NCBI GenBank assembly: GCA_048882485.1
Contig: JBHLRP010000005.1
Coordinates: 44,936 to 108,935, forward strand
Direction: 5' to 3'
DNA length: 64,000 nt
From: Candidatus Thorarchaeota archaeon
Lineage (GTDB): Archaea > Asgardarchaeota > Thorarchaeia > Thorarchaeales > Thorarchaeaceae
The notes beneath the pieces are model-generated. The model did not search any database. It saw only the letters and a list, made by a program, of their open reading frames with translations, and was not told the DNA's origin. The translations under genes were made by a program, and so were the position numbers. The first letter of the stretch is position 1; each line of letters starts with the position of its first letter. Shown one piece after another: positions 41,536-61,818 of this stretch.

Positions 41536-41541
41536 TTCTCC

Positions 41542-42094: not shown

Positions 42095-42193
42095 TTTGAA
42101 ATTAATAGGATTAGACAAGTCGAAGGCCATGTCTTGCTTTCAGAGATGAACTTTAAGGCAAATTGCACCTCTGCACCTTGAGGGAGATTCAAT

Positions 42194-42976: not shown

Positions 42977-42984
42977 TTCAATAT

Positions 42985-43435: not shown

Positions 43436-45475
43436 TTGATTGAAGATGCTGTTGGAAACATGCAGTCTCATGTCATTAGTATCACTAGAGGCTTCTTCGA
43501 AGAACATTTCCCTGATGATGCAGAAGCCATGAGTAAGGCATTCGCTGAAAAATACGAATCGCTAGTAGAGCAGCAAGAAAGAGAAGACGCCACTGAAGTA
43601 GAAGGAATGCGTAACCTCATTGTTTCCTTCAGGCCTGCGTTATCCTATGTCCTGCAACAATGTGAAGAATTTGACATGCTCTTGACTATGATGTTGTATT
43701 CGTTCAAGGCTTCATGGGAAGGAGCACACCGAAGAAGGTCGAAGCCTCCTCCCAAGAAAGGACCAGTCATGCCAGGCAGCGATCAGTCAGTGAACCTCGA
43801 ATTCTACTGCACAGTATGCGAACAAGTTATTGATGTGCCTTATGAGAAGAAGATGGAGATTCTCAATTCTGAGGAAGAAGTTGAGCTTCCAACCCATTGT
43901 GGTCAGTCAGTTAAGATCAGAATCTCTAGGAAGGGAGAAGAGTCAAAGGTGGAAGAGGCTGAACAAGAGGAGTCAATCGAACCCATCGAATTGCTGATGG
44001 GTCATGTGCCAGCTGATAACGTTGAGTACATGAAGGTTCTTAGTGTCGGGATTGATATAGGTTCATCCACATCGCATCTCATTTTCTCTCGACTTACACT
44101 CAAACGGGAAACAAGCCTGTTCAATATCACGAATCGTTTCAACCTCGTCAATCGAGAGATCATCTACGAGAGTTCCATTATCTTCACGCCACTCATCGAC
44201 CGATACAATATCGATGTCGAGGCTGTGATCGAGTTTTGTGAGGAGGAGTACAAGAAAGCCGAAATAACTCCGGAGATGGTTGAAACAGGTGCAGTTTTAG
44301 TTACAGGAGAGACTGCTAAGAAGGAAAATGCTGCAGAGATTGTTAATCGTCTATCCTCCGAATCTGGCAAATTTGTTAGTGCAGCCGCTGGTCCAAATCT
44401 TGAATCCCTTCTAAGTGCCATGGGAAGTGGGATTGTTGATCAATCACTCTTCAGCCAGAAATCACATTTGCATGTTGACATTGGTGGAGGAACTAGCAAC
44501 CTTGCTATTGTATCCCGTGGTCTGGTTCTAGGCACAAGTTGCATCAATGTTGGAGGCCGTTTGCTTGGGATTGATAAAAACCTCAAGATTTGGCGAATAG
44601 ATGGCCCCGCACAATTCCTCATGAATGAACTAGGTATGCAGTATCAAATTGGCGACACCATTGCTGAAGAAGATGCAAGGAGTATTGCTGGAGAGTTTGC
44701 AGAAGCACTGTTTGAAGTAATGCAAGGTCCTGCGGAGAGCAAAATTGCTAGGGAACTGATGATGACGGATGATTTGGATTTCTCAATCCCGATAGATGCC
44801 TACTCCTTCTCAGGTGGGGTTTCTGAGATGTTCTACGGCAACGATGAAACCTTCGATGATATCGGTGTGATGCTAGCAGAAGAAATCAAGGCCTTAGTCG
44901 AAGACAAAGGCTTGTCAGTGGTTGAGCCTGACAATAAGATTCGAGCCACAGTCATTGGCGCTGGAGCCTTTTCTCTCTCGGTGTCGGGCTCAACTACTTT
45001 CTTCGGTGAGGGCATTGAGCTACCACTCGTTAACATACCTGTGCTCCCTGTAGGTTTAGGAAATGAGGAATTCTCTCCCGAAAGGCTGGTCAAGGAAATC
45101 CGTAGATCATTCACCACTTTTGACATGATTGAGGGAGAGGATATTGTCGCCTTATACTTCAAAGACCGAGTCATATCTAGAGTATATACAGGCGATGGGT
45201 GGCTTCCACCATTTGCAGAGTCAATAGAAGAGGCTATGTCAAATTCTGTTTCAAAGAGGAGACCTGTCATTTTGATATTTGGATACGATGTAGCCAAGAG
45301 ACTGGGTCTCGCGATAAGGGATGAAACTTCTATCAAGACTAACATTCTGGTTCTAGATGAGCTGCTGCTGGAAGCAGGTGATTGGATAGATATTGGCGCA
45401 CCCCTCAAAGACACAGAAGCTTTTCCTGTCACTGTGAAGAGTCTTGTGTTCAATAAGAGCAAGAAGTATTCCTAG
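43436..45475 (+). CDS. eutA: EutA-family reactivating factor (ASKHA ATPase) with about 195-aa N-terminal extension
   Basis: SVGIDIGSSTSHLIFS, TGETAKKENA, AGPNLES, DIGGGTSN, IRATVIGAG, GDWIDIGAP, PVTVKSLVF. Confidence 0.85.
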   Translation: MIEDAVGNMQSHVISITRGFFEEHFPDDAEAMSKAFAEKYESLVEQQEREDATEVEGMRNLIVSFRPALSYVLQQCEEFDMLLTMMLYSFKASWEGAHRRRSKPPPKKGPVMPGSDQSVNLEFYCTVCEQVIDVPYEKKMEILNSEEEVELPTHCGQSVKIRISRKGEESKVEEAEQEESIEPIELLMGHVPADNVEYMKVLSVGIDIGSSTSHLIFSRLTLKRETSLFNITNRFNLVNREIIYESSIIFTPLIDRYNIDVEAVIEFCEEEYKKAEITPEMVETGAVLVTGETAKKENAAEIVNRLSSESGKFVSAAAGPNLESLLSAMGSGIVDQSLFSQKSHLHVDIGGGTSNLAIVSRGLVLGTSCINVGGRLLGIDKNLKIWRIDGPAQFLMNELGMQYQIGDTIAEEDARSIAGEFAEALFEVMQGPAESKIARELMMTDDLDFSIPIDAYSFSGGVSEMFYGNDETFDDIGVMLAEEIKALVEDKGLSVVEPDNKIRATVIGAGAFSLSVSGSTTFFGEGIELPLVNIPVLPVGLGNEEFSPERLVKEIRRSFTTFDMIEGEDIVALYFKDRVISRVYTGDGWLPPFAESIEEAMSNSVSKRRPVILIFGYDVAKRLGLAIRDETSIKTNILVLDELLLEAGDWIDIGAPLKDTEAFPVTVKSLVFNKSKKYS

Positions 45476-45854: not shown

Positions 45855-46394
45855 TCAGATCCAGCATCTGACGCGTTTCTTGAATTCTCGATACTCATCC
45901 CCAAATTCCTCTTCCAGAATGGTCTCTTCCCTCTTTATGAAGAATCTGAAGACAATGTAGGTGAGAACAAGGAGGAATGAAGTTACCAGGCTACTCAAAA
46001 CTACCGCCAATCCGAAAAGCGCCACGAGGCATCCCAGATATAAGGGATTCCGCGAGAATCTGTAAGGCCCCACAAGGACTAGTGCTTCAGGCCTCTGCAT
46101 AGGCTCTCGATTTCGTAGACTTATTCTTCCTACGTAAAGCAGAGAGTAATTTGCCCATATTATCAAGAGCATGCCTATAGGAATGAACAGGAGTCCTATG
46201 AGATTGTAGGGTTGCGGAATTATGTCGGCCGGAAATGTGAATATGTCAATGAGGATTTGTATATCGACATTGAAGATAAGGAATGGGGCAAGAATGACAT
46301 AGGCGAAGATGGTTGATAATATGATTATCCACAATCCTTGAAGGACTATTCTCGCACGAGGGTGTCGTTTTTTGAATTCTTCGAACTCAACCAT
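45855..46394 (-). CDS. ICMT/PEMT-family membrane methyltransferase
   Basis: LVLVGPYRFSRNPLYLG, EE..L.EEFGDEYREFKKRV. Confidence 0.9.
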   Translation of the reverse strand: MVEFEEFKKRHPRARIVLQGLWIIILSTIFAYVILAPFLIFNVDIQILIDIFTFPADIIPQPYNLIGLLFIPIGMLLIIWANYSLLYVGRISLRNREPMQRPEALVLVGPYRFSRNPLYLGCLVALFGLAVVLSSLVTSFLLVLTYIVFRFFIKREETILEEEFGDEYREFKKRVRCWI

Positions 46395-46683: not shown

Positions 46684-47997
46684 TTGAAGATTCTCAACTA
46701 CTCGAGGCTCAGAGCAAAGGAATTCACTGGGCTGTCCACGTTCCAATTCCTCGCCTTCTTCAGAAGGTCCATAGTGTATACTTTCTTGTCTATCTATCTG
46801 AGGTCCCTGGGTCTCTCGACAACGGAAGTCACATTGATGGCGACTGTGGGAATGATCGGCAATACTCTGGCACAGTCATTGCTCTGGGGCAATCTGCTAG
46901 ACAAGTACCGAAGACCCACCGAGTTCGTTGTCATGGGAGAATTCTTTGCTGGAGTCGCTCACATCTTCATGGTCCTTGGGTATATGTTCTTTCTCGGATT
47001 GAATCAGTTGATTATCGCTGGTTATGTTATAATCTTCAGTCTAGGTGGAATTGAAGTCTTCTGGAGTATGTCAAACGTCGGATGGTCAGCGCTGATATCC
47101 GAATTGACTGAGGATGACGAGAGAAAGCAGCTGATGGGCCAATTCTCAATAATCGGAGGATTTGGAGGAATTGGTGGTGCCATTCTTGGAGGCCTTCTCT
47201 ATGACAATGGCGTAGGGTTTGTCAGCGGAATCATCTTCATTATTGCTGCTGTTGTCATGATATTCTCGAGTTTCATTGTCTACTTCTCAGTCAGATTGGG
47301 AAGGGATGATGAGTCACAGGAATCTAATGATGAAGCCTCAGAGAGCTTTTCACTGAGTGATCTTCCTTCACAACTCCGCATGGGATACCTCATCTTCATA
47401 GTTGCCTTGGTATTCATCAATTTTGGAAGGAACTCGATTGCAATCATAACAGCCCTATTTGTCCAGGACGCAACAGGCTTCAACGCGAGTGGAATAGAAA
47501 TTGCACTCTACAGCAATGTCAGAAGTATTGCATCTATGATTGCTGGATTGCTGATTGGATCTGTCGTTGCCAAAGCTGATGATAACAGAGTAATGGTTCT
47601 GGGAACAGCGTTTTCCATTGCCGGCATTTCGTGGTTAGTAGTCGCCCCGACCTTTGCCCTGGCTTTATTGGCATCATTCCTCAGGGGGGCATCGGAGGTC
47701 ATCATCAACGCTTCAAGCTATTCCATCGTAGCCAGAATGGCGCCTAAAGAGTACCGTGGTAGGCTGTTTGCATATTATAATGCGACATTCTTCCTTAGTT
47801 GGGGAATCGCTGCCACCTTCATCGCCGGACCAATAGCCGACATTCTGATTAGCCAAGGTCTGAGCAATGCAGACGCATACCGAGGAAGCTTCATAGCAGC
47901 AATTGCTTTGATTGCCATAGGAATCATCATCCTTCTTGTTTCATTTAGGTATAACCAAAGGAAGGGACTCATCGCGCAGAATCAGGATGTTGAATAG
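46684..47997 (+). CDS. MFS transporter (intact copy A)
   Basis: About 12 TM; WGNLLDKYRR, APKEYRGR motifs. Confidence 0.9.
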   Translation: MKILNYSRLRAKEFTGLSTFQFLAFFRRSIVYTFLSIYLRSLGLSTTEVTLMATVGMIGNTLAQSLLWGNLLDKYRRPTEFVVMGEFFAGVAHIFMVLGYMFFLGLNQLIIAGYVIIFSLGGIEVFWSMSNVGWSALISELTEDDERKQLMGQFSIIGGFGGIGGAILGGLLYDNGVGFVSGIIFIIAAVVMIFSSFIVYFSVRLGRDDESQESNDEASESFSLSDLPSQLRMGYLIFIVALVFINFGRNSIAIITALFVQDATGFNASGIEIALYSNVRSIASMIAGLLIGSVVAKADDNRVMVLGTAFSIAGISWLVVAPTFALALLASFLRGASEVIINASSYSIVARMAPKEYRGRLFAYYNATFFLSWGIAATFIAGPIADILISQGLSNADAYRGSFIAAIALIAIGIIILLVSFRYNQRKGLIAQNQDVE

Positions 47998-48686
47998 TAG
48001 TGATTATAGATTTTTAATGGGGATCCTCCCAAGGCATACCAAACACGACAAAGCATAAATTCTGCAATAATGGGAATTACTCCTCGTTTTCGAAATTCCT
48101 CAGCACTAGTTTCAACTCTTTTCTCAAGTAGGACTACTCGACCAAATTTCCTCATGCATTTTGCCAATCGCAAATCCTCGAAAAGGGGGACTTCAAGCAC
48201 TTCCATACAGCTTTTCAGTACATCAGTACGAATAAACATTGCATGGTCGCCATAAAACTCACCTGAGATTCGAAACCACTGATTCAGCATCCATAATCCA
48301 AGGTCATAGTATGGTCTATGGGTGTCGTAGGCCACGGCGAACCCCCCACCGACAACTTCAGGGTCCTCCATAGCGGCTATGATTGCGCGGTCCCATCCCT
48401 CAAGAGGAACCGTATCAGAATGCAGCAGCAGGGTTATTGCACCAGTGATATTAGTCATTCCTTGAAGAAAAGCAAAGCCGCGGCCTCTTCGCCGGGCAAC
48501 GACCACCATTTCATTGGCTCTCTGGGATTTAATCTGTTGAATAAGGATTGGGTTGTTTAGTACCATGATTAGTTGTGTCGGTGCGTCCGCCAGGGATAAT
48601 GCCCTCCTTATTTCTGGAATTCTATGATTTGATGTATGTATAGGAGTAATCACAGATATCAGAGGGGATCCTACCATGACGCGCAC
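47982..48686 (-). CDS. GT2 glycosyltransferase, TIGR04283 (arsenosugar-associated) type, copy A
   Basis: ISVITP, GRG, LLLHSDT, VGGGF, YGDHAMF, PLFED, VETS. Confidence 0.75.
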   Translation of the reverse strand: MRVMVGSPLISVITPIHTSNHRIPEIRRALSLADAPTQLIMVLNNPILIQQIKSQRANEMVVVARRRGRGFAFLQGMTNITGAITLLLHSDTVPLEGWDRAIIAAMEDPEVVGGGFAVAYDTHRPYYDLGLWMLNQWFRISGEFYGDHAMFIRTDVLKSCMEVLEVPLFEDLRLAKCMRKFGRVVLLEKRVETSAEEFRKRGVIPIIAEFMLCRVWYALGGSPLKIYNHYYSTS

Positions 48687-48791
48687 CGTTAGGATATTCG
48701 AAGGTGTTCAGGAATCAAGAATCGATACACATATCACTATCCATGGAAAGGGACTGCGTATTTCCATCAGAGAGTTGGAGTGGATAACTCA

Positions 48792-49547
48792 TTGGTTTCT
48801 GAAACTGTGCCCGACACCGACGACTTTCGACCCAATAAGTATCAAATCGGTCCTGGAATAGGGCTTTTGCTAATGGGTATTTTGTACTAAGTTTTTTGGC
48901 TTTCACCATTGACCTATGAGTCATTCGTCACAGATCCTCGCTGGTCCCACAACTGGGTCTATTCACTAATAATCATAACAATTGGGGCGTCGTTTTATCA
49001 AAAGACTGTGACAAGTAGATTAATTGCAATTCTTCAGCGATTGCTTATGCCAATCACCGCGAGTGGTGCGTTCAATACAACCTTTATGGCCATAGTTGCT
49101 TTGCTACTACTCTCACTATGGATTATTGTTACACTGATTGAACGTTCAAATAATGTCCCACTTATTGACCACCAGTTCTCACAGCGCACTCGGAATTGGC
49201 GAGTCATACATTCGTTGATAGTCTGTTGGATTCTGATGGCACATATGGGACTAGTATTCTTCATAGGTCGACTACCATTTGAGGCTCAACTTGACACCAT
49301 TGGAACAGGTCTGGGACAAAGCTTGGGCTTCTTACTTAATCTTCCAATTGAGCGATATGATCTCATCTCTTATGTCTTTGATATCGACCTGACAGTTCTT
49401 GCGATCCTATTTGGATACGAGCAATTCAAAGGGGGATATAATCCAAGGAACAAGCCATGGCCACGAATCAGTTTCTGGTTTCTCTGAATCACCGTTATAC
49501 TCAGTCTAGCATTGCTTCCTATAAACCTCGAAGGCATAGTCCCCTGA
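48792..49547 (+). pseudogene. Multi-TM membrane protein, copy A, with two nonsense codons
   Basis: Colinear with 56573-57328; TAA at 48888-48890 (Leu in copy B) and TGA at 49485-49487 (Trp in copy B). Confidence 0.85.
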
Positions 49548-49569
49548 AATTCTCATATCTTGCCATCAA

Positions 49570-50280
49570 CTAGGAGAACAAGATTTCCAGCAGCATTTGG
49601 TCCATCCGAAGATATCTCAGAGAGTGCAGTGTGGCTCCCGCTCGCGATTTATGTAGCATATAGAATTCCTGAAGATTGCTTTTGGTGTCTATATCCTGCC
49701 ATTCAGGTAGCACACACACTTCATTGGTTTCTGCTTCTATCCGTGTCAAGGTCTCTTGAAATACTGCATCTGTACTCCAAGATATGTTTCTAAAGGAGTC
49801 GGGAATGAAAGAATCCTTGGAGAACCCAATCAAGTAATACCCTCCATCAGTCGCTGGTCCAATTACAGCCTTGTGCGTCTTGAGATTAGACACAGCTTTT
49901 TGCAGAATCTCAGCAGGTAGATCTGGGCAATCACTTGCGAGAGCAATCACCTGATTATACTTCTGGTTAAACATGGCAATGAAGCCATTATGGAGCCGTT
50001 CTCCAAGATTCGCACCCTTTTGTGGAAAATACCTAAGCGAAGGACCAAGCCACTGTGCAAGCTTCACATGTGATTCAGGAGGATGCACTGCAATATGAAA
50101 CGGAACGTCGAGATCTTGCACCGTTGCAAGCGTGTCCAGAATGAACGCTCGATATAGGCCAGTTGCGGCTGTTTCTCCTAAAGACTTTGCCAATCGTACT
50201 TTAACCTTGCCTGCCTGAGGATGCTTCACCATAATGAATATCCCTGGACGAAATGTGTTCACAACGTTCCCCATATCCAC
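49570..50280 (-). CDS. TIGR04282/DUF2064 glycosyltransferase-like protein (arsenosugar-associated)
   Basis: KHPQAGKVKVRLA, QKGANLGERL, SDCPDL, IGPATDGGYYLIG, ISWST, DIDT. Confidence 0.85.
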   Translation of the reverse strand: MDMGNVVNTFRPGIFIMVKHPQAGKVKVRLAKSLGETAATGLYRAFILDTLATVQDLDVPFHIAVHPPESHVKLAQWLGPSLRYFPQKGANLGERLHNGFIAMFNQKYNQVIALASDCPDLPAEILQKAVSNLKTHKAVIGPATDGGYYLIGFSKDSFIPDSFRNISWSTDAVFQETLTRIEAETNEVCVLPEWQDIDTKSNLQEFYMLHKSRAGATLHSLRYLRMDQMLLEILFS

Positions 50281-50300
50281 ATCCTTTCCTGTTTTGATTG

Positions 50301-51260
50301 TTACTCAATGGCGCCATCACAAGATGAACCATATCCTGCGGTGCAGCCATAGCAATGAGGTCCGGTAACAATCTCACGAGTTAGGTGAGAAATAGGATCA
50401 AATTGGCCGACATGTTGTGGCGTTTTGGCAACAGGGACTTTGAGCGCGAAATTGAAATCGCAATCGTAGGTCCGTCCATCCCATCCAATACAAACTTGAT
50501 GCCTGCACATCAGTCTATCTAATGTAGCTGGATTGAAGGAATCTTCAAGTAGCTGCTGGTACTGAGAGGCTTGATTCTCTATTTCCAACATCTGTTTGAA
50601 CCTTCCAATCGGCATGTTCGTGATAGTGAGCAGACGGTTGAAACTGATGTTATATTCTGTCGACAGTACTTCTTTATAGGTGCCCTCAAGCTCGGATTGC
50701 TCTGGAGGTAGAAATGGACCTTCCGGATTGAAGACCAGGTTCATAATTAGCCCTTGATCTATACCATAGCCCAGTCCATTTAATTCTCTTAGGACTTGAA
50801 TGCTCTTCCTGAATACACCCCTACCACGTACATTGTCCACATCTTGCTCCAAATAGCATGGCAAGGATGCAGCTAATCGAATCTGAAGGTTTCTGTACAT
50901 CTTCATGTATCTTTTCAGGGCAGGATGCAATAATACCGTTAGGTTGGTTCGCACTTGGACATTATAATCCCTCTCAACCAAAGCTTGCAGAAATCGTGGC
51001 AAAAAGGAGTTTAGCTCAGGAGCCCCGCCTGTGATATCGACAAGCTCTGGATGAATTTCCTCAGCGACTATGAGTGCTTCTTCCATTGTCTTCCAGCTCA
51101 TGATGTCATTGCTCCAAGGGGTGGCTTGTACGTGGCAATGATTGCAGAGATGATTGCACCGATTTCCCACGTTCACCTGTAGTGTTTCATGAGTCAAGCC
51201 GGTTAGTTTGAACCCTGTTTCATTTAGAGTCCGTTGACTGAATTTCATCATCTGCGGCAT
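50301..51260 (-). CDS. arsS: Radical SAM/Cys-rich protein, ArsS family (TIGR04167)
   Basis: TLQVNVG..CNHLCNHCH, DITGGAPEL, ASLPCY, ITNMPIGRF, LMCR, YDCDFN, HCYGCTAG.GSSC.G. Confidence 0.85.
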   Translation of the reverse strand: MPQMMKFSQRTLNETGFKLTGLTHETLQVNVGNRCNHLCNHCHVQATPWSNDIMSWKTMEEALIVAEEIHPELVDITGGAPELNSFLPRFLQALVERDYNVQVRTNLTVLLHPALKRYMKMYRNLQIRLAASLPCYLEQDVDNVRGRGVFRKSIQVLRELNGLGYGIDQGLIMNLVFNPEGPFLPPEQSELEGTYKEVLSTEYNISFNRLLTITNMPIGRFKQMLEIENQASQYQQLLEDSFNPATLDRLMCRHQVCIGWDGRTYDCDFNFALKVPVAKTPQHVGQFDPISHLTREIVTGPHCYGCTAGYGSSCDGAIE

Positions 51261-51548
51261 CCTGAATAGACTGTTGTGCTAACCTGGATTTCGCTCATAT
51301 AGATGTAGAGATTCAGGATGGAATTCATCGGTGAAGATTTTCATTTAGTCCGAGCTAAACTCCAATCTCAGACTTCTACCCTTCCTAGAAGAGTTAGAGC
51401 TTTAGTGACTTGGCTTTCCAAATGGAATCTATCTGAAGTTCCGCCTCTTGAGCCTAATACGGCCTCTCTATACGAAGCTCTATAAGCTACCTCCGGCTAA
51501 TTAGCAATTCGTTTGATTCGCTGGAGACACTAGAGGGAGTGCTTTCAG

Positions 51549-53048
51549 ATGAAGCCACTTGGTACGATCACAAAGTACTATCCGTTCATTGATGAGGAGT
51601 CCAAGTCCACTTTGAATTCCCTCTTGGAGAAATCAAGTAGCTACTTTGATTTTGTTCAGCGTTTGTGTGAATCAGTTATAGCTAATGAAGCTCCTGTCAA
51701 TCTGGCCTATATCGCGGCTGTACAGGCATGGTGGTGTAGATTGGATAAGGCTATGGTGGGCATACGTGAGAAATACAATGATTCGCGTCGCATAAAGTCG
51801 TGGGGATTTGCTCACGCTTCTTTTGAGATTGATCAAGCCCGCTATCATGATTCTGTTGTTGAAGCCATTGAGCAAATGATGAGTAACTCTCCCGAAGATT
51901 GGATTCTGACAGAACTTCACCTTCTTCATGCGCATTATCACTGGCCCATGTTCGGTGACATTCCAAGTCTTCTGGAACCTGTCGAAAAGGGGAGGAAATT
52001 GATAGCTGCAAACCCTCTTCTGGAATGCTTTGAAGCTCAAGCCTGTTTCTATGAAGGATGGGCGAAGAGAGTCGAGGGTGACATAAAGGAAGCAATTGCA
52101 ATCTATCAAAAGGGGATTGAGCTCGCTCAGGCGTACGACGAATTTCTACACCTGTACCTGAACCTGGGCGGTAAAGGGGACGCTCAGAAGAATGTCAATA
52201 TTCAGGATGCACTAGCATCCTTTGATGCGTCCTATGTAGTAGCTCAGGACCTAGGAGTGCCCTATCTAGAGGCTGAAGTCTTGCATGACACAGCCCTAGT
52301 GTTTGAGACCGCAGGGGAGTACGACCTGGCAATCTCAAGTCTTCTCGAAGCCTGGAAAACATATGGATTGGATAATGGCACTTCTTTTCCTTTATTGCAG
52401 CTATCAAGAGTCTATGCTAGATTAGGGGATGGTCAACAAGCTCTTGAAACTGTGCAATCCTATATGGACTCTATAGGACACCAAGAAACTATTGGTGGTT
52501 ATCTTGTGAGAGCCCTAGCTCTGGCACAGCTAGATAGAGTGGCAGAGGCGGAAAGTGACCTGATCAAAGTATATCCCCTCGTTATGCAGAGGGGCTTGGA
52601 TCGCATTCTGGGCAGGTATTATCTCGCATCTGGACTTGTTGAGCAAGCAAGGGGTGATTACCTAGCTGCTTCAGATTTCCTTGAGAAAGGTCTAGAAATC
52701 TTCGAGCAAGTTGGCGACGTTCATGGAGAGAAGAGTCGTGCTCTCCTGGGATTAGCCAGAGCGGAGATAGTGCTCGTCAAGAAAGCAACGAATGGTGAGA
52801 AGAGTATTACTCCAGGCACATGGCTCTGCAGGGCTGAGAAACATGCAGTAGATCGGAACCTCCCCGGCATTAGAATGGAGGTTGCCTTCCTCATGTCGGA
52901 ATTCTATCAAAGCCACGGGCAAATCAAAGACGCTATCGGGACTCTTGAGGGTGCGCTTGATATCACAGACTCATTGGGAGTAAGAACTCTAAGGACAAGG
53001 ATTTCTGAAAGAATTGCCGAGCTGAGGAGTCTACCAAAGGAAATATGA
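51549..53048 (+). CDS. Tetratricopeptide-repeat protein
   Basis: MKPLGTITKYYPF N-terminus; repeated helical TPR patterns (G.Y..A...LE.AL). Confidence 0.75.
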   Translation: MKPLGTITKYYPFIDEESKSTLNSLLEKSSSYFDFVQRLCESVIANEAPVNLAYIAAVQAWWCRLDKAMVGIREKYNDSRRIKSWGFAHASFEIDQARYHDSVVEAIEQMMSNSPEDWILTELHLLHAHYHWPMFGDIPSLLEPVEKGRKLIAANPLLECFEAQACFYEGWAKRVEGDIKEAIAIYQKGIELAQAYDEFLHLYLNLGGKGDAQKNVNIQDALASFDASYVVAQDLGVPYLEAEVLHDTALVFETAGEYDLAISSLLEAWKTYGLDNGTSFPLLQLSRVYARLGDGQQALETVQSYMDSIGHQETIGGYLVRALALAQLDRVAEAESDLIKVYPLVMQRGLDRILGRYYLASGLVEQARGDYLAASDFLEKGLEIFEQVGDVHGEKSRALLGLARAEIVLVKKATNGEKSITPGTWLCRAEKHAVDRNLPGIRMEVAFLMSEFYQSHGQIKDAIGTLEGALDITDSLGVRTLRTRISERIAELRSLPKEI

Positions 53049-53122
53049 GGAATATTGATACATGCAATATTTATTATTATAAGATAATAGCATATACTAG
53101 TATCATCTTTGGAGGCTTTGCC

Positions 53123-53284
53123 ATGTCGAATTCTCAAGTCTGCAAATTCAGATTCAAGAATGGATCAAAATCTCTCCGCTTGAATATTCGGTACTATCCG
53201 GTGGATTCAAAGGGGCCAGAAGAGATATTGGCCAATTTCGTCGGCATTCTTAGATACGCACTAGGTGTGTCTTTGAGTGATTGA
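53123..53284 (+). CDS. Unannotated 53-aa protein
   Basis: GGAGG SD and ATG; C-terminus conserved with mostly synonymous changes in a remnant at 57554-57598. Confidence 0.6.
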   Translation: MSNSQVCKFRFKNGSKSLRLNIRYYPVDSKGPEEILANFVGILRYALGVSLSD

Positions 53285-53403
53285 GTAGACCTTGATTCCA
53301 ATTCTCTGTCCGCTGCTGCCATTAACCTCGCTTTACATTTTCATCTTATCGACCAGATTTATTATGGTGCAATGTTGCTTCTCGATTCTAGGGAATATCC
53401 GAG

Positions 53404-54005
53404 ATGGAACGCAAAGAAGAGGAGATGAATGGGATTCTCGTAGCTTTCGATGAGCGTTTGCCACTAAGGTCGAGATTTGCCTTTGGGCTATCTCAAGCTT
53501 CCATAAACATTCTTCAAGTCATTGCGTTAGGGTCAGCAATCACGTTCTTTTACAATGTTAAGCTAGGACTGAGCGAAGAATTGGTCTCGCTTGCTTGGCT
53601 CCTATTTGCGGCATGGAACGCTGTTAATGATCCACTTTTCGGGATTCTTCAAGAGAGGATCGATATGGACATCGGACGGCGCATTCCGGTCTTGCGCTTC
53701 GGAGCCCTAGTTTATGCGACCGCTTTTCTCATATCTGGTTTCCGTTCTTAGGCAGCACGCAAATAGCCCTCTTCTGGAACTTTCTACTCCTCCTATTTCT
53801 GTTCGATTCAATGTTCACTATGGTTGGATTAATCCGAACAGCTTTGCCTGCTGAAATATGCATTACTCAAGAAGCTAGATCGGGGCTCAGTCTATATAAT
53901 GTGGTTCTTGGGTCCATTAGAATCTTATTGGCGATGATAATCCCATTGGTCCTCCTTACCGATGAATTAGCAATCGAGCTCAATCCTCTCTTCAAACGGG
54001 TCATT
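53404..54005 (+). pseudogene. GPH/MFS sugar transporter, frameshifted and truncated copy A
   Basis: Colinear with 57718-58320; 1-bp deletion (CATATCTGG vs CATATGCTGG) near 53733; 3' half missing. Confidence 0.9.
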
Positions 54006-54267
54006 GTCAATTGTAGGGATTTCTTGGCTGATCCTTGCCCCAAACTTTGCACTGGATTTGATAGCCTCCTTCAATAGAGGAGCAGCGGAAGTCAAAATCG
54101 GTGCATCGAGTTATTCGATAGTTGCTAGAATGGCACCTAGGGAGTATCGTGGAAGATTGTCTGAAGACTCCAATGCGACTTTCTTCCTGAGTTGGCGAAT
54201 CTCCGGTACACTTGTTACAGGACTCGTAGCAGATATCCAAATTGGGCTTGAATTGACTTTTTTATGA
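54006..54267 (+). pseudogene. 3' fragment of the MFS transporter (copy B of 46684-47997)
   Basis: GISWLILAPNFAL...ASSYSIVARMAPREYRGRL...NATFFLSW matches copy A. Confidence 0.85.
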
Positions 54268-54322
54268 CACTTTTGTGAACTTCAACCTCGTAGCATTTCC
54301 CTCATTTCCTTAAATGCTGAAT

Positions 54323-55474
54323 TCATTCTTGTAGTTCGGGATTCGGGCGTTCTAATGATGAATGGTGCTCGAGAAACTCTAGTGTCAGAATTAAGGAAAG
54401 CAAAATTGAAGCTATTAAATAAGGATACCCAATTTGGAGCGCCAGCCATTCATTGTTCAATGAAGCCAACGTTCCTCCGGCAACTAACAAGAATTGGAGG
54501 AGGAAAAAAAGGGGCAGCATTAATGAATTCCATCGACTTTCGTTTTGTGTAATATAGATACAGAAGATTGGAATATACCATAAAGCATAGTATAGGACTA
54601 CCTTATTGAAAAGGATGAATATCACTAGAATCAGATTGCTTTGACGAAGTAAGTCGATATTAGCACGTCTTTTATTCAAGGCAATCATAGCCAAAAGTGC
54701 TAGCATAATCATGGGCTGAATTGCCCAAAAGTCCTGAGGGCCTTTCCAGATATTCGGAGATTCTGAGAACAAGTTATAAAACGAATATCCGGATGAGCCT
54801 CGTGTAAAAGGAAATTCAACAACGTATGAAAACCATGCATCTCGTGATAGCATAATGAATGGCAATTCAATGAGAATAGAAAGTGTTGTGAATGTGAAGA
54901 AGTACTTCATTCTCTGACGGTTGTCTTTGATATACAGAAGAGCAGGAAATGCAATTAGAATTGGGAAGTACTTGTAGGCTACGCCGATTGCCAAAGCAGC
55001 AGCTGAATAGATATATTGTTCCCTAAAAAGCAGCAGAACACTCAGCAGCATCCAGAATGCTGCGGTTGAATCAAAGCTGCCTGACAGAGTCGTAGCTATA
55101 AGCGGGAGAGGAGAGAAGCTATACAGGGCAGCAGCCATGAGGCCTTTTTTCTTGGTAGAGTTAGTAGCTACGATCAAATATACTAAGACGATAATACCAA
55201 GGTCATAAATCAGTGGAACAACCTTCCAAATCAAAGCAGAATTCCCAAAAACTGCAAAGAATAAAGCTTCAGTGAACGCGTACAATGGAGGATATGCAAA
55301 TGGTGCATCAATATAGAGCAATCCTCCATCGAGAATTACCTGTGCAGCATGAGCGTTATTAGCCGCATCAATCCCTACTATCCCTCCAAGCAGCAGCGGC
55401 ATCCGAATAAGAATAGTGATAAGTATAAGCCCTATGAAACCAAATTCCTCCTGATAGCCGTCCTTCAATGTCAT
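54323..55474 (-). CDS. GT-C fold membrane glycosyltransferase (GT87/PMT-like)
   Basis: D after TM1, LY.D...YPPL, K.FP, multi-TM; visibly AT-rich. Confidence 0.75.
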   Translation of the reverse strand: MTLKDGYQEEFGFIGLILITILIRMPLLLGGIVGIDAANNAHAAQVILDGGLLYIDAPFAYPPLYAFTEALFFAVFGNSALIWKVVPLIYDLGIIVLVYLIVATNSTKKKGLMAAALYSFSPLPLIATTLSGSFDSTAAFWMLLSVLLLFREQYIYSAAALAIGVAYKYFPILIAFPALLYIKDNRQRMKYFFTFTTLSILIELPFIMLSRDAWFSYVVEFPFTRGSSGYSFYNLFSESPNIWKGPQDFWAIQPMIMLALLAMIALNKRRANIDLLRQSNLILVIFILFNKVVLYYALWYIPIFCIYITQNESRWNSLMLPLFFLLQFLLVAGGTLASLNNEWLALQIGYPYLIASILLSLILTLEFLEHHSSLERPNPELQE

Positions 55475-55760
55475 GAAACCGTTCTTCCCTAAGGAGCTTA
55501 CAGCATATCTACTCTTATCTCTATGTCCAAAATGTATCTAGGCTCTACGAATGATGCAGCTAGGCCAAGAGCCAAGTAGAGGAGGTCGCACAGATTGGAG
55601 GTGGTCCCCACTCAGAAGAACACGTTCCCTTTGGGCGATTAGGCGATTCTATTCGATGAGTGAATTAGATCCAAATCTCGACGTCATCGCTTGCAAGGGA
55701 CTTGAGAGTCATAAGCCTGCACAGACTCTGCCTGAAGCATAAATTGATGCTGCGAGAACA

Positions 55761-56462
55761 CTATCGCTCCAATTTCCTAGTTGAATAATATGCATTGTAA
55801 ATCTGGAATGGAGATCCTCCCAAAGCGTACCATACTCGGTAAACGATGAAACTCACTTGTTCTCGAAAACTCTTGGAAATGTTCTCAACCTTATCCTTGA
55901 GTAATACTACTCGACCATATCTGCGCATACATAATGCTAATCGCAAATCTTCAAAAAGCGGAACTTCCAGCACTGACAAACAGCGTTTCAGAATATGGGA
56001 GCGAATAAACATGGCACGGTCTCCATAGAGTTCCCCTGATATTCGAAACCACTGATTCATTACCCATGTACCAAGGTCTAGGTTGGGTTTAGATATATCA
56101 TAAGCAATGGAAAAGCCTCCACCTACCACCTGCGGATCTTCCAGCGCTGCAAGAATTGCATGATCCCATCCAATTGGAGGAATTGTATCAGAATGTAAGA
56201 ATAGGGTGATGTTGCCTGTGATATTAGCGAATCCCCGAAGAAATGCAAAACCACGACCTTTTCGAGGAGCAACTACTATTAATTCGTTGGAGCCTTGGGG
56301 TATTATATGATTAGCAAGTTTAGGATTGTTTAACACCAAAATCAGTTGTGTAGGTGCGTTTGCTGAGGATATTGACTTCCTAATCTGCGGGATTTTATGA
56401 TTTATTGTATGTATGGGCGTAATCACAGAGATCAAGGGGGAATCTACCACAGTATACACCAC
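55761..56462 (-). CDS. TIGR04283-type GT2, copy B (short in-frame deletion near C-terminus)
   Basis: Paralogue of 47982-48686; KVENISKSFREQVSFIVYRVW versus RVETSAEEFRKRGVIPIIAEFMLCRVW. Confidence 0.7.
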   Translation of the reverse strand: MVYTVVDSPLISVITPIHTINHKIPQIRKSISSANAPTQLILVLNNPKLANHIIPQGSNELIVVAPRKGRGFAFLRGFANITGNITLFLHSDTIPPIGWDHAILAALEDPQVVGGGFSIAYDISKPNLDLGTWVMNQWFRISGELYGDRAMFIRSHILKRCLSVLEVPLFEDLRLALCMRRYGRVVLLKDKVENISKSFREQVSFIVYRVWYALGGSPFQIYNAYYSTRKLER

Positions 56463-56572
56463 GCTATACTATTCATGGGGTGGTCTGCCATCGACATCGG
56501 ATAAACATGTTTTTATCACAAGAATCATGATTGTCAGATTAATTTTCTTCATAATTGAGAGTGGATTACGTC

Positions 56573-57328
56573 ATGACAAACGATACTACACCCGATACAA
56601 GCTCAACTCCACAGAATAAATATCAAATCGGTCCTGGACTGGGGCTCTTATTAATGGGAATTCTATACCTCGGATTTTGGCTCTCTCCCTTGACCTACGA
56701 AGCCTCAATAACTGATCCTAGATGGTCGCATAATTGGGCCTATTCTCTAATAATCATAACAATAGGAGCTTCATTCTATCATAAGACCATCCTTAGCAGA
56801 TTCATTTCGTTGGTCCAAGCAATACTGATGCCGCTCACTGCGAGTGGGGCATTCAATACGACATTCATGACCCTGGCCGCACTGCTTATCCTTTCACTAT
56901 GGATTATTGTTTTCCTTATTGAACGAAGAAGAAGAGTTCCATTTCTTGGTGATCGGGTGTCAAAGCGGACTCAGAATTGGATTGTCATGCATTCACTAAT
57001 TGTCTGTTGGATTCTTATTGCGCACATGGGTCTTGTATTCTTTATTGGTAGGCTACCATTTGAAGCTCAACTTGATACTATAGGGACAAGCATAGGACAG
57101 AGCCTAGGCTTTCTGCTCAATCTGCCAATTGAACGATTTGACCTAGTTACTTATGTCTTTGACATTAACTTGACCATTCTAGCCATCCTATTTGGTTATG
57201 AACAATTCAAAGTTGGATACAACTTGAGGAATAAGCCCTGGCCGAAGATTAGTTTCTGGTTTCTATGGATAACCATTATACTTGGGATAGCATTACTTCC
57301 TTTCAGTCTACGAGGTGCTATTCCTTGA
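56573..57328 (+). CDS. Unknown multi-TM membrane protein (intact copy B)
   Basis: About 7 hydrophobic segments; DPRWSHNW, H..IVCWIL.AHMG, GRLPFEAQLD conserved between copies. Confidence 0.8.
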   Translation: MTNDTTPDTSSTPQNKYQIGPGLGLLLMGILYLGFWLSPLTYEASITDPRWSHNWAYSLIIITIGASFYHKTILSRFISLVQAILMPLTASGAFNTTFMTLAALLILSLWIIVFLIERRRRVPFLGDRVSKRTQNWIVMHSLIVCWILIAHMGLVFFIGRLPFEAQLDTIGTSIGQSLGFLLNLPIERFDLVTYVFDINLTILAILFGYEQFKVGYNLRNKPWPKISFWFLWITIILGIALLPFSLRGAIP

Positions 57329-57330
57329 TT

Positions 57331-57553
57331 TCACAATTGGTTCTCAACGGGCTTGGATGATGCCATTTGTAGAATCCCTTTATGGCTGCGAAGATACTTC
57401 ATAGCAATTAGAGTGTTTAATGAGTTTGCTTGATGTTTCTTATAGAACTCCCGTAGGTTTCTCATGGTGTCAATGTCTTGCCATTCGGATAATACATGAA
57501 ACTGATGCGTTTCTGCTTTGTATTCGCGAGAGGGTTTCCTGAAACACAGTACT
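57331..57553 (-). pseudogene. 3' remnant of TIGR04282/DUF2064 gene (copy B)
   Basis: VFQETLSRI/AET..VLSEWQDIDT..NL.EFY matches the C-terminus of 49570-50280, with a frameshift. Confidence 0.85.
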
Positions 57554-57717
57554 GTTGACATCCTTAGGTATGCACTAGGTGTGTCCCTGAATGAGTGATT
57601 AGATGTCGATACATTTTCCCACGCCACTACCTTCATTCATCTCGCACCGAAATTGCGTCTTGCCAACCAAATTTATTATGGCGCAATGTTGCTTTTCCAG
57701 TTCAGGGATTATCTGAG

Positions 57718-59190
57718 ATGGAAGGCACCGAAGAAGAAATGAATGAAGTCGCTGTTGATTTTGATGAGCGTTTGCCGCTAAGGTCGAAGTTTGCCTTTGG
57801 TCTATCTCAGGCGTCTATTAACATCCTTCAAGTCATTGCACTAGGGTCAGCAATCACTTTCTATTATAATGTCAAGCTAGGACTAAGTGAGGAATGGGTT
57901 TCTCTTGCTTGGCTCCTGTTTGCCATATGGAACGCCATTAATGATCCTCTCTTTGGAATTCTTCAAGAGAGGATTGATACAGACATCGGACGGCGTATTC
58001 CTATCTTGCGCTTCGGAGCACCAGTCTACACAATTACTTTTCTCATATGCTGGTTTCCGTTCTTGGGCAGCACGCAAATAGCCCTCTTCTGGAACTTTCT
58101 ACTCGTCTTATTCCTTTTCGATTCAATGTTCACTATGGTTGGATTGGTGCAGACAGCTTTACCTGCTGAAATGTGCATAACCCAAGAAGCTAGATCTGGA
58201 CTTAGTCTGTATAATGTGGTTCTAGGATCCATTGGTGGACTATTGGGGATGATAATTCCGTTGGTCCTCCTTACTGATGAGTCAACAACCGAGCTCAATC
58301 CTCTCTTCAAGCCAGTGATGATTCTGGCAGCCTTGACTGCAGGGACAATCCTGTTTCTCTCAAGTTATGCTCTCACGGAAAACGAGTACGCAAGGACTGA
58401 GGAAACTCTTGGTTTCAAGGAGTCCATGATTGAAACGCTCAAGAACAGGGAGTTTCTCTCATTCGAGGCAATGAATTTCTTCCGTGAGTTCGCCTTCACG
58501 ATAGTGACTGGTTCCATGATTTATTTCGTACAATTTGTGTTGGACTTGCAGGGCTTCATGGCTTCTGTTCCTCTGGCAGCTATTTTCGTTGTTATGCTCA
58601 TCTTCAGTTTCCTGGCAGACAGAATGGTGAAGAGGCGTGGACTAAAGCAGGTCTATATCATTGGATCCCTGATTGGCGGTGCTGGCCTCTTTCTGTTGCT
58701 ATTCGCTGGAAGTATGCAGTTAGCAGTGATGCTATGCTTTGTTGTAGTAGGAATTGGTTTGGCTCCAGTCCTATTGATTTTCAATCCGCTATTGGCTGAT
58801 GTCATGGATTACGATGAACTGCTAACCGGTAAGAGACGGGAAACGACTTATGCAGGAATGAACGCGCTACTCACAAAACCAGCAATCTCTATTGCTAACG
58901 CGCTATTCTTGCTGATAATCAGTGGATTTGGCTTTGACAATACACAGACTGCGCAGTCAGTAACAGCAATCCTTGGAATTCTGTTGGGATACTCACTAAT
59001 TCCCGCGCTATCATTCATAATCAGTGCGATCGCGCTTTGGAAACTTTACAGGCTCGATGGCAAGGAGTGGATAGAAAAGAAGGTCGAATTGGGTAAGGTG
59101 CGACTGCTGAAAGAGAGGGAATACATCGAACGCCTTCAAAGAGAAGGGAAGATATCCAAGGTCTATGAGAGAATCTACAGGGAGTCCTAG
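57718..59190 (+). CDS. GPH-family (MelB-like) MFS sugar/glycoside transporter (intact copy B)
   Basis: WNAINDPLFG, GRRIP, LADVMDYDELLTGKRRE..Y.G. Confidence 0.9.
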   Translation: MEGTEEEMNEVAVDFDERLPLRSKFAFGLSQASINILQVIALGSAITFYYNVKLGLSEEWVSLAWLLFAIWNAINDPLFGILQERIDTDIGRRIPILRFGAPVYTITFLICWFPFLGSTQIALFWNFLLVLFLFDSMFTMVGLVQTALPAEMCITQEARSGLSLYNVVLGSIGGLLGMIIPLVLLTDESTTELNPLFKPVMILAALTAGTILFLSSYALTENEYARTEETLGFKESMIETLKNREFLSFEAMNFFREFAFTIVTGSMIYFVQFVLDLQGFMASVPLAAIFVVMLIFSFLADRMVKRRGLKQVYIIGSLIGGAGLFLLLFAGSMQLAVMLCFVVVGIGLAPVLLIFNPLLADVMDYDELLTGKRRETTYAGMNALLTKPAISIANALFLLIISGFGFDNTQTAQSVTAILGILLGYSLIPALSFIISAIALWKLYRLDGKEWIEKKVELGKVRLLKEREYIERLQREGKISKVYERIYRES

Positions 59191-59268
59191 GACAAGAACG
59201 AAAGCGGCAGTTGGCTTCATATTCCCCTAACATCTCTATTAAATGGCTTCAACACGTTCATTTTATGC

Positions 59269-60156
59269 GTGGTTGTGATGCATCTAAAAGGAATTGAGAA
59301 ACTGCGAGAGAAATTGCCCGCCTACCCTGGAAACCGAATAGGAATCATTCTTCTAAGAGGTTTCCTTGGGATGATATTGGGCTACTCCTTTATGATATTC
59401 CTAGACATAGTTGCGCGGATTCTTCCCGACGTCGCCTTTCTTGCGTCCATTGAACCCTATCTGCCGTTTGTTGGTAGCATCATTGTTGGAGGAATTGGAA
59501 TATTACTCATCAGAAGAATCTGGGACCTACGAGATGAGAGGAAAAGGGAATACGGGAATTTGGCATATCAGAAAATGATTCCGATTGGAGTGGCGGGGGT
59601 CTTCCTCGTCCCATCGGTTGTCTTTCATGCATTTACATCTATTCGATCCTTACCGCCTGGGCCTCCTATTAATAATCTGACATCGCTTTGGTCACAATCC
59701 ATTCTCTCAATAGCTGGGATTTCGGCTGAGATTGATGTTATTCTTCGGCTAGCAATCAGCTCAATCCTTATCCTTATTGGTATCCTGCTTGTAAGGAGTG
59801 CCATCCTGACTTTCGGGATAGACTACATGACTGTTGTGTACCTATATTTCCCAGAAGAATCAGAAGTCCAACAGAGTGAGATTTACTCTGTCATTCGCCA
59901 CCCCGCCTACCTTGCTGTTGTTCTCTTTGGAATGGCGGCACTATTCTTTAGGCTCTCTGTCTATTCGATTGGAATCTGTGTCATTATCTATGCATTACTG
60001 AGGCTCCACATCCGAAGAGAAGAGAGGGAACTCATTGAGCGGTTTGGAGATGGCTATTCTGAGTATATGAGGAGGGTTCCCGCGCTATATGTTAGTCCAG
60101 AGAATTATGGGAAATTCTTCAGATTCCTCAGGGGAAGTGATTCAGCTGACCAGTGA
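59269..60156 (+). CDS. ICMT/PEMT-family membrane methyltransferase with N-terminal TM extension
   Basis: IYSVIRHPAYL, EERELIERFGDGYSEYMRRVP. Confidence 0.85.
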   Translation: MVVMHLKGIEKLREKLPAYPGNRIGIILLRGFLGMILGYSFMIFLDIVARILPDVAFLASIEPYLPFVGSIIVGGIGILLIRRIWDLRDERKREYGNLAYQKMIPIGVAGVFLVPSVVFHAFTSIRSLPPGPPINNLTSLWSQSILSIAGISAEIDVILRLAISSILILIGILLVRSAILTFGIDYMTVVYLYFPEESEVQQSEIYSVIRHPAYLAVVLFGMAALFFRLSVYSIGICVIIYALLRLHIRREERELIERFGDGYSEYMRRVPALYVSPENYGKFFRFLRGSDSADQ

Positions 60157-60192: not shown

Positions 60193-61818
60193 TCAAGGAA
60201 TCACTTGGTCATCAATTATCTCTATCTGGAACATCTTGCCATCTCTCCAAAGCTCACATGTTCGTTGTAATGACCACAAATAAGCTCCATCCCATGCCAA
60301 AGCATCAGTTCCCCATGCGACAGGATAAATCTTCCCGGCCAACGTCCAGTTCGAATCCCATTTCGTCAAATAGAGACCTGATTCTCCCCAGAAGAAAGTT
60401 CCAGTCCATACAATAGAACCCGCAGAAGTGCCACCTTTAAAGGGAATCTCCGAAATCAGACTCCCTGTCATATTCATTCTATAAACAACGGTTCCCGCGA
60501 CCGTGTATAGGAAGTTGCCATCGCATGCTAGGGTAGCGTAACCTGTTTCTTCAGAATGAGGGGTAGAAAATGAAGTCAGCAGTTCTATGTACCCGCTTGT
60601 GTTGACTGTGAATTTGAAGATTTTCCGATGTGTCAGGTCATTGACCCAGAAGTATTTGCCATCATTAGCTAAGCCTCGCGGATTGAATACAAAATCATTG
60701 CCATAGAAAGTATGGTTTCCCGTGACAGGATCAATTCTAATGAAATCCTGAAAGGTTCCTTTTGTATGCGAAGCAAAGTCGAAACGCCAGAGACTTCCGT
60801 TCAAGAAGGTAAGCGCAGGTCCAGTGGTAGTTTCTTTCTCAAGGCGCTTCACAACCCTACGGGTTTCGTCCTCTGCTGGATAGACGTAAAGATATTTGTC
60901 CTCCGGGTCACCAGGAACATACCCTAGCTCCACCCGCTTGCTGTCTTGAAAATCGAGAGTTGGAATAGCTACCGTACCGCTTCCAAAGTCATTGTCGTGG
61001 GTTGTATTTGTTGTCGTGAAATCAATCGCAATTGGGGTATCTCCTATGTTCTCGAATCGATTTCCAATGATTGCAACGTTGGAGTATTCTCTTGCGGATA
61101 CTGCCCTACCGGTGTAATTGACGAAATAATTCCCTTCAATTGTTGCGTTTGAGTATTCTGTGTGAATTCCATTGTGCCCTCCTTTGAAAATATTGTAACG
61201 GATTGTTACGTTGGGATTCCGAAGTTCCATTATAAGTTCATGATAGGCATTCTCGTAGAGAAGATTGTATTCAATAATCGGGGATGATGCAAAAGATGCA
61301 ATCCCCTCTGTATTTGCCCATCTCACAATAGAATGAGAAATAGTGACTTGTGAGCCCCACTGTTCAATCCCGATGGTGCTAAACTCAATGATCACATACT
61401 TGAAGATGGTGTCATTTGTACCTGAACAACTAATTCCTCCCCAATCGCCATTTATTGGCTCATCAGCATCAGAAGTGAACCATATCTGCTGATCCGGCGT
61501 TCCTATAGCAATCACGGTGCCTCCCGCCACAAAGAAGCTCACAGAGGTGTCTTCCCTATAACCTCTGTAATGTCTGAATTCAACCCACGTACCTGGAAGG
61601 ATTGTCAAGGTCACATTTTCTGGAACTACTACAGTATCATCAACATGAACCAGCCCGGACCAAGTGGTGTCCTCCTCCAAAGTTCCTCCAACGAATGTCA
61701 ATCCACTTTCAGGATGGCTATAGTTGATCAGAACCAATATGGACATAGTTGATATAACCACAATAGCTACAATGATGAGTGCGATAGATTTTCTGCTTGA
61801 TACTATTGTGTTATTCAT
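60193..61818 (-). CDS. N-anchored surface protein: beta-helix plus beta-propeller
   Basis: DTTWSG..V...V.V...VTLTI.PG, GDWGGI; C-terminal GLA.DG..W / LAWDG.YLW repeats. Confidence 0.75.
   Translation of the reverse strand: MNNTIVSSRKSIALIIVAIVVISTMSILVLINYSHPESGLTFVGGTLEEDTTWSGLVHVDDTVVVPENVTLTILPGTWVEFRHYRGYREDTSVSFFVAGGTVIAIGTPDQQIWFTSDADEPINGDWGGISCSGTNDTIFKYVIIEFSTIGIEQWGSQVTISHSIVRWANTEGIASFASSPIIEYNLLYENAYHELIMELRNPNVTIRYNIFKGGHNGIHTEYSNATIEGNYFVNYTGRAVSAREYSNVAIIGNRFENIGDTPIAIDFTTTNTTHDNDFGSGTVAIPTLDFQDSKRVELGYVPGDPEDKYLYVYPAEDETRRVVKRLEKETTTGPALTFLNGSLWRFDFASHTKGTFQDFIRIDPVTGNHTFYGNDFVFNPRGLANDGKYFWVNDLTHRKIFKFTVNTSGYIELLTSFSTPHSEETGYATLACDGNFLYTVAGTVVYRMNMTGSLISEIPFKGGTSAGSIVWTGTFFWGESGLYLTKWDSNWTLAGKIYPVAWGTDALAWDGAYLWSLQRTCELWRDGKMFQIEIIDDQVIP

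Follow-up and report, generated by a model that had tools for sequence, protein, structure and literature searches.

A small, mobile ArsS cassette of the database-named arsenic-sugar type in a Thorarchaeota (Asgard) genome, with a conserved orphan membrane protein

The radical S-adenosylmethionine (SAM) enzyme ArsS is known from cyanobacteria, where the enzyme of Synechocystis sp. PCC 6803 adenosylates dimethylarsenite (DMAs(III)) to 5'-deoxy-5'-dimethylarsinoyl-adenosine (review, PMC13598754). Only this first ArsS step is established, in cyanobacteria; the later steps and the product given below for the present locus are inferred. For bacteria, NCBIfam names an 'arsenosugar biosynthesis' set (TIGR04167, TIGR04282, TIGR04283 and NF038099), in which ArsS is followed by a TIGR04282 protein, with a family-2 glycosyltransferase (GT2) bearing the motif LH(A/S)D(T/S) nearby. 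In this study, a locus of this kind was analysed in a 64,000-nucleotide stretch from a Candidatus Thorarchaeota archaeon (GenBank assembly GCA_048882485.1, contig JBHLRP010000005.1, positions 44,936 to 108,935 of the forward strand), hereafter the window. A preliminary description, made from the sequence alone, had read positions 46684-60156 of the window as an arsenosugar-biosynthesis-like cluster with lipid and membrane add-ons. We found a small and mobile ArsS cassette of the database-named arsenic-sugar type. The set ArsS/TIGR04282/TIGR04283 is already named in NCBIfam, and Thorarchaeota proteins already carry the label 'ArsS' at NCBI; new here are a conserved orphan membrane protein, the occurrence of that protein in another cluster built on a SPASM-type radical SAM enzyme, and the history of insertion, duplication and decay at the locus.

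The conserved unit is a four-gene cassette of 3.5 kb and not a pathway of 13.5 kb. Its GT2 gene diverges from the gene of the membrane protein, towards which the TIGR04282 and ArsS genes are read from the other side (GT2 <- -> membrane protein <- TIGR04282 <- ArsS). ArsS, TIGR04282 and GT2 occur together at all 13 Asgard ArsS loci in constant order and on constant strands, the TIGR04282 and GT2 genes each adjoining ArsS. The membrane-protein gene is present at 11 of the 13 and then always lies between TIGR04282 and GT2 on the opposite strand; the two loci without it belong to one genus, g2 (G017 and G389), and there an MFS transporter gene follows GT2. ArsS is scattered, with 5 positives among 41 near relatives and 18 among 400 Asgard genomes, and 14 of the 16 other genomes of the same genus have no ArsS. 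An Asgard host had been proposed as probable, and this assignment holds because the closest matches of both ArsS and the membrane protein, at 73-92% identity, carry the name Candidatus Thorarchaeota. The genes that the preliminary description listed (ArsS, TIGR04282, GT2, an MFS and a GPH transporter, a GT-C glycosyltransferase and two PEMT/ICMT-type genes) were all recovered in their places by the open reading frame (ORF) listing and profile searches. Neither Rfam families nor tRNAs were found in positions 40000-64000 of the window.

Compared with the ArsM-ArsS pathway of Synechocystis sp. PCC 6803, the locus has the same radical SAM family (TIGR04167, with CX3CX2C and a Cys-rich DUF3641 C-terminus), and its genome likewise holds an arsM. 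It differs in its archaeal host, in an arsM that is unlinked and of the generic detoxification type, and in a membrane protein that is not known in bacteria. The bacterial NCBIfam set resembles the Asgard cassette in gene order and GT2 motif, whereas the Asgard GT2s score 86-108 bits against a TIGR04283 cut-off of 182. The Asgard cassette also lacks ArsM, PNP phosphorylase, pyridine-nucleotide disulfide oxidoreductase, FA_hydroxylase and VTT/DedA proteins, and has the orphan membrane protein instead. At 78 non-Asgard ArsS loci sampled (76 bacterial, 1 Thermoplasmatota and 1 uncultured archaeon), the recurring neighbours are GT2 (22), ArsM-like (20), DUF2064 (18), pyridine-nucleotide disulfide oxidoreductase (15), FA_hydroxylase (10), VTT/DedA (9) and PNP_UDP_1 phosphorylase (8) genes, and the membrane protein is absent from all of them.

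The ArsS gene occupies 50301..51260 (-), and its product has Radical_SAM and DUF3641 domains (PF12345, 174 bits). The match to TIGR04167 reaches 380.3 bits over model positions 7-303, about 80 bits above the equivalog cut-off of 300 bits curated by NCBI (134 bits for TIGR04282 and 182 bits for TIGR04283), which bears out the earlier view of the protein as a member of the ArsS family. It is the only copy over the cut-off in the whole genome. The CX3CX2C motif lies at C35/C39/C42, the Cys-rich C-terminal DUF3641 domain has Cys and not selenocysteine, and no variation is seen at C135, C252, C267, C303, C306 and C314 among 10 aligned family members; all family-invariant Cys are kept. The tree calculated from 91 ArsS sequences puts the 13 Asgard proteins in a single clade (SH-aLRT 99) on a long stem branch (0.58), with a Thermoplasmatota sequence as sister; both fall in a group with good support whose other members come from Planctomycetota, Poribacteria, Nitrospirota and Eubacteriales. 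As a separate observation, many JGI gene calls of Thorarchaeota ArsS (P0213, P0218-P0243) have 261-267 aa, start at the Met equivalent to M55 and lack CX3CX2C; these short calls are probably start-codon miscalls.

The TIGR04282/DUF2064 gene (49570..50280, (-)) was described as lying directly downstream of ArsS, and it does so on the same strand at a distance of 20 bp. It is intact, scores 193.2 bits to TIGR04282, matches PF09837 and is the sole copy in the genome; a CofC/MobA-like nucleotidyltransferase fold is assigned to its product. The protein is homologous over residues 14-225 (E 1.4e-47) to PDB entry 3CGX, a structural-genomics entry named 'putative nucleotide-diphospho-sugar transferase', which itself carries only this putative label and no assigned function.

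Two GT2 genes are present, both intact. GT2a (47982..48686, (-), 234 aa) belongs to the copy of the cassette that we call copy A, scores 107.9 bits to TIGR04283 and matches PF00535; GT2b (55761..56462, (-)) belongs to a second copy, copy B, and scores 86.1 bits with the LHSDT motif. The two are 65% identical. The nearby GT2 of TIGR04283 type in the preliminary description is present and carries the family motif, but its score falls below the cut-off of that family. In place of DXD, the family typically has LH(A/S)D(T/S), which reads LHSDT in every one of the 14 Thorarchaeota-type GT2s. The same motif occurs in 7 of 8 aligned GT2s of another Asgard family, f9 (the eighth is a fragment without the region), and in 22 of 27 non-Asgard GT2s; the remaining 5 have LHxD(S/T/A) with V, C or I, or with A ending. 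The divergent intergenic region between GT2a and TMa, the membrane-protein gene of copy A, holds an 18-nt element, GATACACATATCACTATC, at 48724..48741 (no strand assigned), which is kept in Thorarchaeota cassettes. A second copy, GATAAACATGTTTTTATC, lies between GT2b and TMb in copy B at 56500..56517 (likewise no strand assigned). The consensus, GATAAACATATCATTATC, consists of the arms GATAA/TTATC around an 8-nt spacer (GATAA-N8-TTATC), and the element is also found in the same GT2/membrane-protein intergenic region of L028, L029, L055, L056, L061 and L062. With up to three mismatches it has only 4 matches in the 3.96-Mb genome, two of which are the two cassette copies. This element may be an operator or promoter.

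The orphan membrane protein is encoded by one intact gene, TMb (56573..57328, (+); 251 aa from the ATG at 56573, about seven helices), and one broken copy, TMa (48801..49541, (+)). The TMa frame matches the family profile end to end, through a TAA at 48888-48890 and a TGA at 49485-49487 that were also read directly, and is 78% identical to TMb. The transmembrane protein of the preliminary description is real, but the ORF at 48909-49487 is the open middle of the broken copy, and the intact paralogue lies at 56573-57328. A selenocysteine reading of the TGA was ruled out, since Trp stands at this position in homologues and TMa carries an in-frame TAA as well. In the tree of the family, TMa stands among same-genus orthologues on a long end branch (0.22), and TMb, on a short branch (0.043), pairs with a metagenomic protein to which it is 92% identical.

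Conserved positions of the membrane protein (numbered as in ORF 56555-57328) are H59, N60, R82, E123, H146, H157, R166, E170, E193, GYN221-223 and PWP228-230; these residues do not vary among close relatives, and their conservation in 80 sequences is 90% or more. Relatives form 115 clusters in a set of 5.8 billion proteins, and all named ones are Asgard; an exhaustive profile search of 1.84 billion representatives gave only 38. A few distant relatives come from a Methanomicrobiaceae and a Chloroflexota metagenome-assembled genome. The family is almost confined to Asgard archaea. It had no match to a Pfam or NCBIfam family, and among 23 members no Pfam match was better than E 0.004. AF2 models (pLDDT 73, then 85.6) gave nothing above noise in Foldseek against PDB (best E 0.17) or VIA-align (best Z 6.6), nor did an ESM Atlas search. 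Comparison by hhalign with two kinds of membrane protein that recur at bacterial ArsS loci, VTT/DedA and FA_hydroxylase, gave probabilities below 1%. Two distant relatives (P0121 and P0129) have an N-terminal ferritin-like/rubrerythrin-like domain fused to the membrane domain, and this fusion hints at an iron, metal or redox connection of the family.

The surroundings of the cassette were compared with two ArsS-negative genomes of the same genus, G005 and G011. G005 has the order EutA-cupin-PEMT1-MFS-GPH-(1.6 kb)-PEMT2-ADH-GNAT, its proteins being 87-95% identical to those of the window, and G011 has PEMT1-MFS-TPRx3-GPH; neither MFS locus holds ArsS, TIGR04282, GT2, the membrane-protein gene or the GT-C gene. 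Because the order is the same in these cassette-free genomes, five genes of the window are assigned to the native backbone. PEMT1 (45855-46394, (-)) and PEMT2 (59269-60156, (+)) are PEMT/ICMT-type genes. The MFS transporter gene (46684..47997, (+)) lies outside the cassette at the left edge of the insertion and has 88-90% identical homologues in G005 and G011. The GPH (MFS_2) transporter gene (57595..59190, (+)) lies at the right edge, and its 87-91% identical homologues there stand beside MFS or TPR genes. The TPR gene (51549..53048, (+)) is a variable backbone gene between MFS and GPH, with three paralogues at that place in G011. The GT-C glycosyltransferase gene (54323..55474, (-); GT87/PMT_2/PIG-U-like by Pfam matches) is a genome-specific insert in copy B, found neither at any of the 12 other Asgard ArsS loci nor at the empty sites of G005 and G011.

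On this comparison, the cassette (about 47957-51434; GT2a, TMa, TIGR04282, ArsS) appears as an insertion directly after MFS in a Thorarchaeota backbone PEMT1-MFS | GPH-PEMT2. In relatives it stands elsewhere: in G344 between homologues of window positions ~34145 and ~40253, and in G004 between flanks that map to other contigs of the window genome. A search for direct or inverted flanking repeats as insertion scars gave only short matches of chance size. Three further genes of the window were recorded. An EutA-like gene at 43436-45475 (+) scores 437 bits to PF06277, has about 200 extra N-terminal residues and is present in two tandem copies in G011. A right-handed beta-helix/NosD-like gene at 60193-61818 (-) lies between PEMT2 and ADH and is absent from that place in G005. 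A class I methyltransferase gene at 42194-42976 (+), 5 kb from the cassette, encodes a homologue of the UbiE-like methyltransferase of the f9-type clusters described below; it belongs to the conserved backbone, positions 39758-43054 being 92.8% identical to G005 at the DNA level.

The window carries traces of a tandem duplication. DNA comparison gave three collinear matches: 47989-49520 with 55781-57302 (69.5%; GT2 and membrane-protein genes), 49648-49764 with 57431-57548 (TIGR04282 3' end) and 53245-53995 with 57560-58311 (81%; GPH 5' end). ORF 53320-54258 is a chimeric pseudogene. Its first part (53320..54008, (+)) corresponds to GPH aa 14-243 with a frameshift near aa 153, the intact GPH matching it by tblastn at 76-86% identity in two frames. 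Its second part (54010..54258, (+)) abuts the first and corresponds to aa 312-394 of MFS (66% identity by tblastn). The chimera appears to be what a tandem duplication with end points inside MFS and inside GPH would leave at its junction. A remnant of a second TIGR04282 3' end (aa 162-233, the last ~72 codons) lies inside ORF 57331-57636 at 57364..57594 (-); it matches by tblastn at 39% identity (E 3e-11) and clusters with the TIGR04282 family. These traces suggest that, after insertion of the cassette, the segment from inside MFS to inside GPH was duplicated in tandem. In copy B, deletions then removed ArsS, TPR and most of TIGR04282, and the GT-C gene came in; the membrane gene of copy A acquired its two stop codons. 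As a result of the duplication, the losses in copy B and the stops in TMa, the intact set is split, with ArsS, TIGR04282 and GT2a in copy A and GT2b and TMb in copy B.

A related cluster without ArsS is found in the family f9. The membrane-protein family occurs in 47 of 400 Asgard genomes, including 32 of 135 of f9, and TIGR04282 in 62 of 400; none of the ArsS-positive Asgard genomes belongs to f9. In 38 of the 47 genomes with the membrane protein, a single contig carries its gene and TIGR04282 no more than about 3 kb apart. The membrane protein tracks TIGR04282, not ArsS. The f9 operon (loci L043-L054, for example L047:8085-12528 and L046:4605-8829, in genomes without ArsS) has, in this order, genes for the membrane protein, a radical SAM/SPASM enzyme (~340-360 aa, not ArsS), a class I methyltransferase, a TIGR04282 protein (98-186 bits) and a GT2 of TIGR04283 type (133-176 bits). 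An additional methyltransferase, UbiE-like, is frequent, and the number of class I methyltransferases is one or two. Records of Promethearchaeota, Lokiarchaeota, Hermodarchaeota, Thorarchaeota, Odinarchaeota and Halobacteriota give the radical SAM family of this operon no name beyond 'radical SAM/SPASM domain-containing protein'. This cluster, seen in Promethearchaeota/Lokiarchaeota-named records, resembles the window cassette in having the same membrane-protein family (41-47% identity), TIGR04282 and a TIGR04283-type GT2 within about 4 kb. It differs by a SPASM-type radical SAM enzyme instead of ArsS, by methyltransferases inside the cluster and by having all genes on one strand. No description of it was found in the papers searched.

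The link to arsenic was examined through arsM. The earlier statement that no recognisable arsM lies in the window is correct, the best match being the generic class I methyltransferase at 42194-42976 with 33 bits to NF008823. In the whole genome, one arsM exceeds its cut-off (306 bits against 263), on contig C13. It lies in an arsenic island (C13:42845-48525, equivalent to L143:5846-11526), where an ArsR/PadR-like regulator gene diverges from arsM and an ACR3 efflux gene (425 bits) follows 3.3 kb downstream. Among the bacterial ArsS neighbours in the tree group, 4 of 11 have an ArsM-like gene 1-3.4 kb upstream. No paper linking Asgard archaea to arsenosugars was found in the literature searched. 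In other Asgard genomes, many ArsM-model matches hold one in-frame TAA or TAG (for example G151, G153, G178, G149 and G160).

We consider the arsenic reading of the four-gene cassette the best supported, with a probability of about 0.6. Under this reading, the unlinked ArsM of the arsR-like/arsM/acr3 island on C13 would make DMAs(III), and ArsS would add the 5'-deoxyadenosyl group of SAM to it, giving an arseno-adenosine. An unlinked housekeeping nucleosidase or phosphorylase may then remove the adenine. The CofC/MobA-like TIGR04282 protein would activate the arsenoribose with a nucleotide, the GT2 would transfer the activated arsenoribose to an acceptor at the membrane, and the orphan membrane protein may receive, anchor or translocate the product.

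Several observations weigh against this reading. The genome arsM is of the generic type, with 110.8 bits to the 'arsenosugar ArsM' model NF038099 (cut-off 400), and no gene of the genome passes that cut-off; at none of the 13 Asgard ArsS loci does an arsM adjoin ArsS. An arsM is present in 15 of 18 ArsS-positive Asgard genomes against a background of 62 of 85 genomes of the family, and because arsM is so common in Asgard genomes, its co-occurrence with ArsS says little on function. Both GT2s, at 86-108 bits against 182, are divergent relatives and not members under the NCBI rule; the literature searched gives no function for DUF2064, TIGR04282, TIGR04283 or the membrane protein; and the tree of 91 ArsS sequences left out the experimentally studied cyanobacterial ArsS. 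The duplicated parts are unequally diverged (69.5% and 81%) and TMa and TMb take different places in their tree; therefore, the history comprises more than one simple event. Finally, a radical SAM enzyme other than ArsS is likewise accompanied by the membrane protein, TIGR04282 and GT2, so that the module need not be arsenic-specific.

This last point leads to the strongest competitor, which we regard as unlikely: the triad of TIGR04282, GT2 and membrane protein would be a general module for a 5'-deoxyadenosyl or other radical-SAM-made adduct, and the Asgard ArsS would adenosylate another nucleophile, such as another metalloid, sulfur or selenium compound. It is favoured by the triad standing without ArsS in 32 of 135 f9 genomes, where a radical SAM/SPASM enzyme accompanies it along with two class I methyltransferases, by the lack of a linked arsM and by the long stem branch (0.58) of the Asgard clade. 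However, ArsS passes its equivalog cut-off by 80 bits, its nearest bacterial relatives are ArsM-linked, and the genome holds a complete arsenic methylation and efflux island. A second alternative, for which we see a small chance, is that the locus is a decaying relic that no longer functions in this genome, as the two stops of TMa, the loss of ArsS and most of TIGR04282 from copy B, the chimeric GPH/MFS fragments and the lack of ArsS in 14 of 16 other same-genus genomes, so that loss is frequent, might suggest. Yet ArsS, TIGR04282, GT2a, GT2b and TMb have all kept their full length and the invariant residues of their families, the TMb branch is as short (0.043) as expected under constraint, and the two copies together give one complete set. 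Least probable is the proposal of the preliminary description that the whole block 46684-60156, including MFS, GPH, GT-C and PEMT/ICMT genes, is one pathway making or exporting arsenosugars or membrane arsenolipids. The genes are physically adjacent, MFS also adjoins the cassette in genus g2 (G017 and G389), a GPH homologue (43% identity) adjoins the related cluster in one f9 genome, and a PEMT2 homologue lies 7.6 kb from it in another. Against this, ArsS-negative genomes of the same genus keep the order PEMT1-MFS-GPH(-PEMT2), and MFS homologues are found in 44 of 86 genomes of the family, mostly ArsS-negative, and on other contigs in six ArsS-positive ones. GT-C, GPH, PEMT and TPR genes are near ArsS at none of the 12 other Asgard loci, and MFS is near it at two. 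The preliminary description had itself named a lack of synteny between the accessory genes and arsS in relatives as grounds for refutation; the membrane protein alone is syntenic, the MFS, GPH, GT-C and PEMT genes are not, and the extended pathway therefore fails by its own criterion. Here the flanking transporters and lipid methyltransferases resembled pathway members and yet are backbone genes, which calls for caution in annotation.

The locus supplies a minimal mobile archaeal cassette, whose sole conserved extra is a strongly conserved membrane protein without a recognised family or fold. Its four genes form a small testable set for the late, post-ArsS steps of arsenosugar or arsenolipid synthesis, because the membrane protein follows the TIGR04282/GT2 pair even where another radical SAM enzyme replaces ArsS. 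By the same token, the action of the two 'arsenosugar' transferases may extend beyond arsenic. We tentatively suggest, as an idea with the odds against it, that the membrane protein, TIGR04282 and the TIGR04283-like GT2 constitute an Asgard-wide processing module for interchangeable radical SAM front ends (ArsS in the Thorarchaeota type; a SPASM-type enzyme with methyltransferases in the Lokiarchaeota/Promethearchaeota type), fixing the product to the archaeal membrane or moving it across. If this were true, the membrane protein would represent a membrane enzyme or translocase of a new kind, one producing ether-lipid-linked organoarsenic (or related) ribosides.

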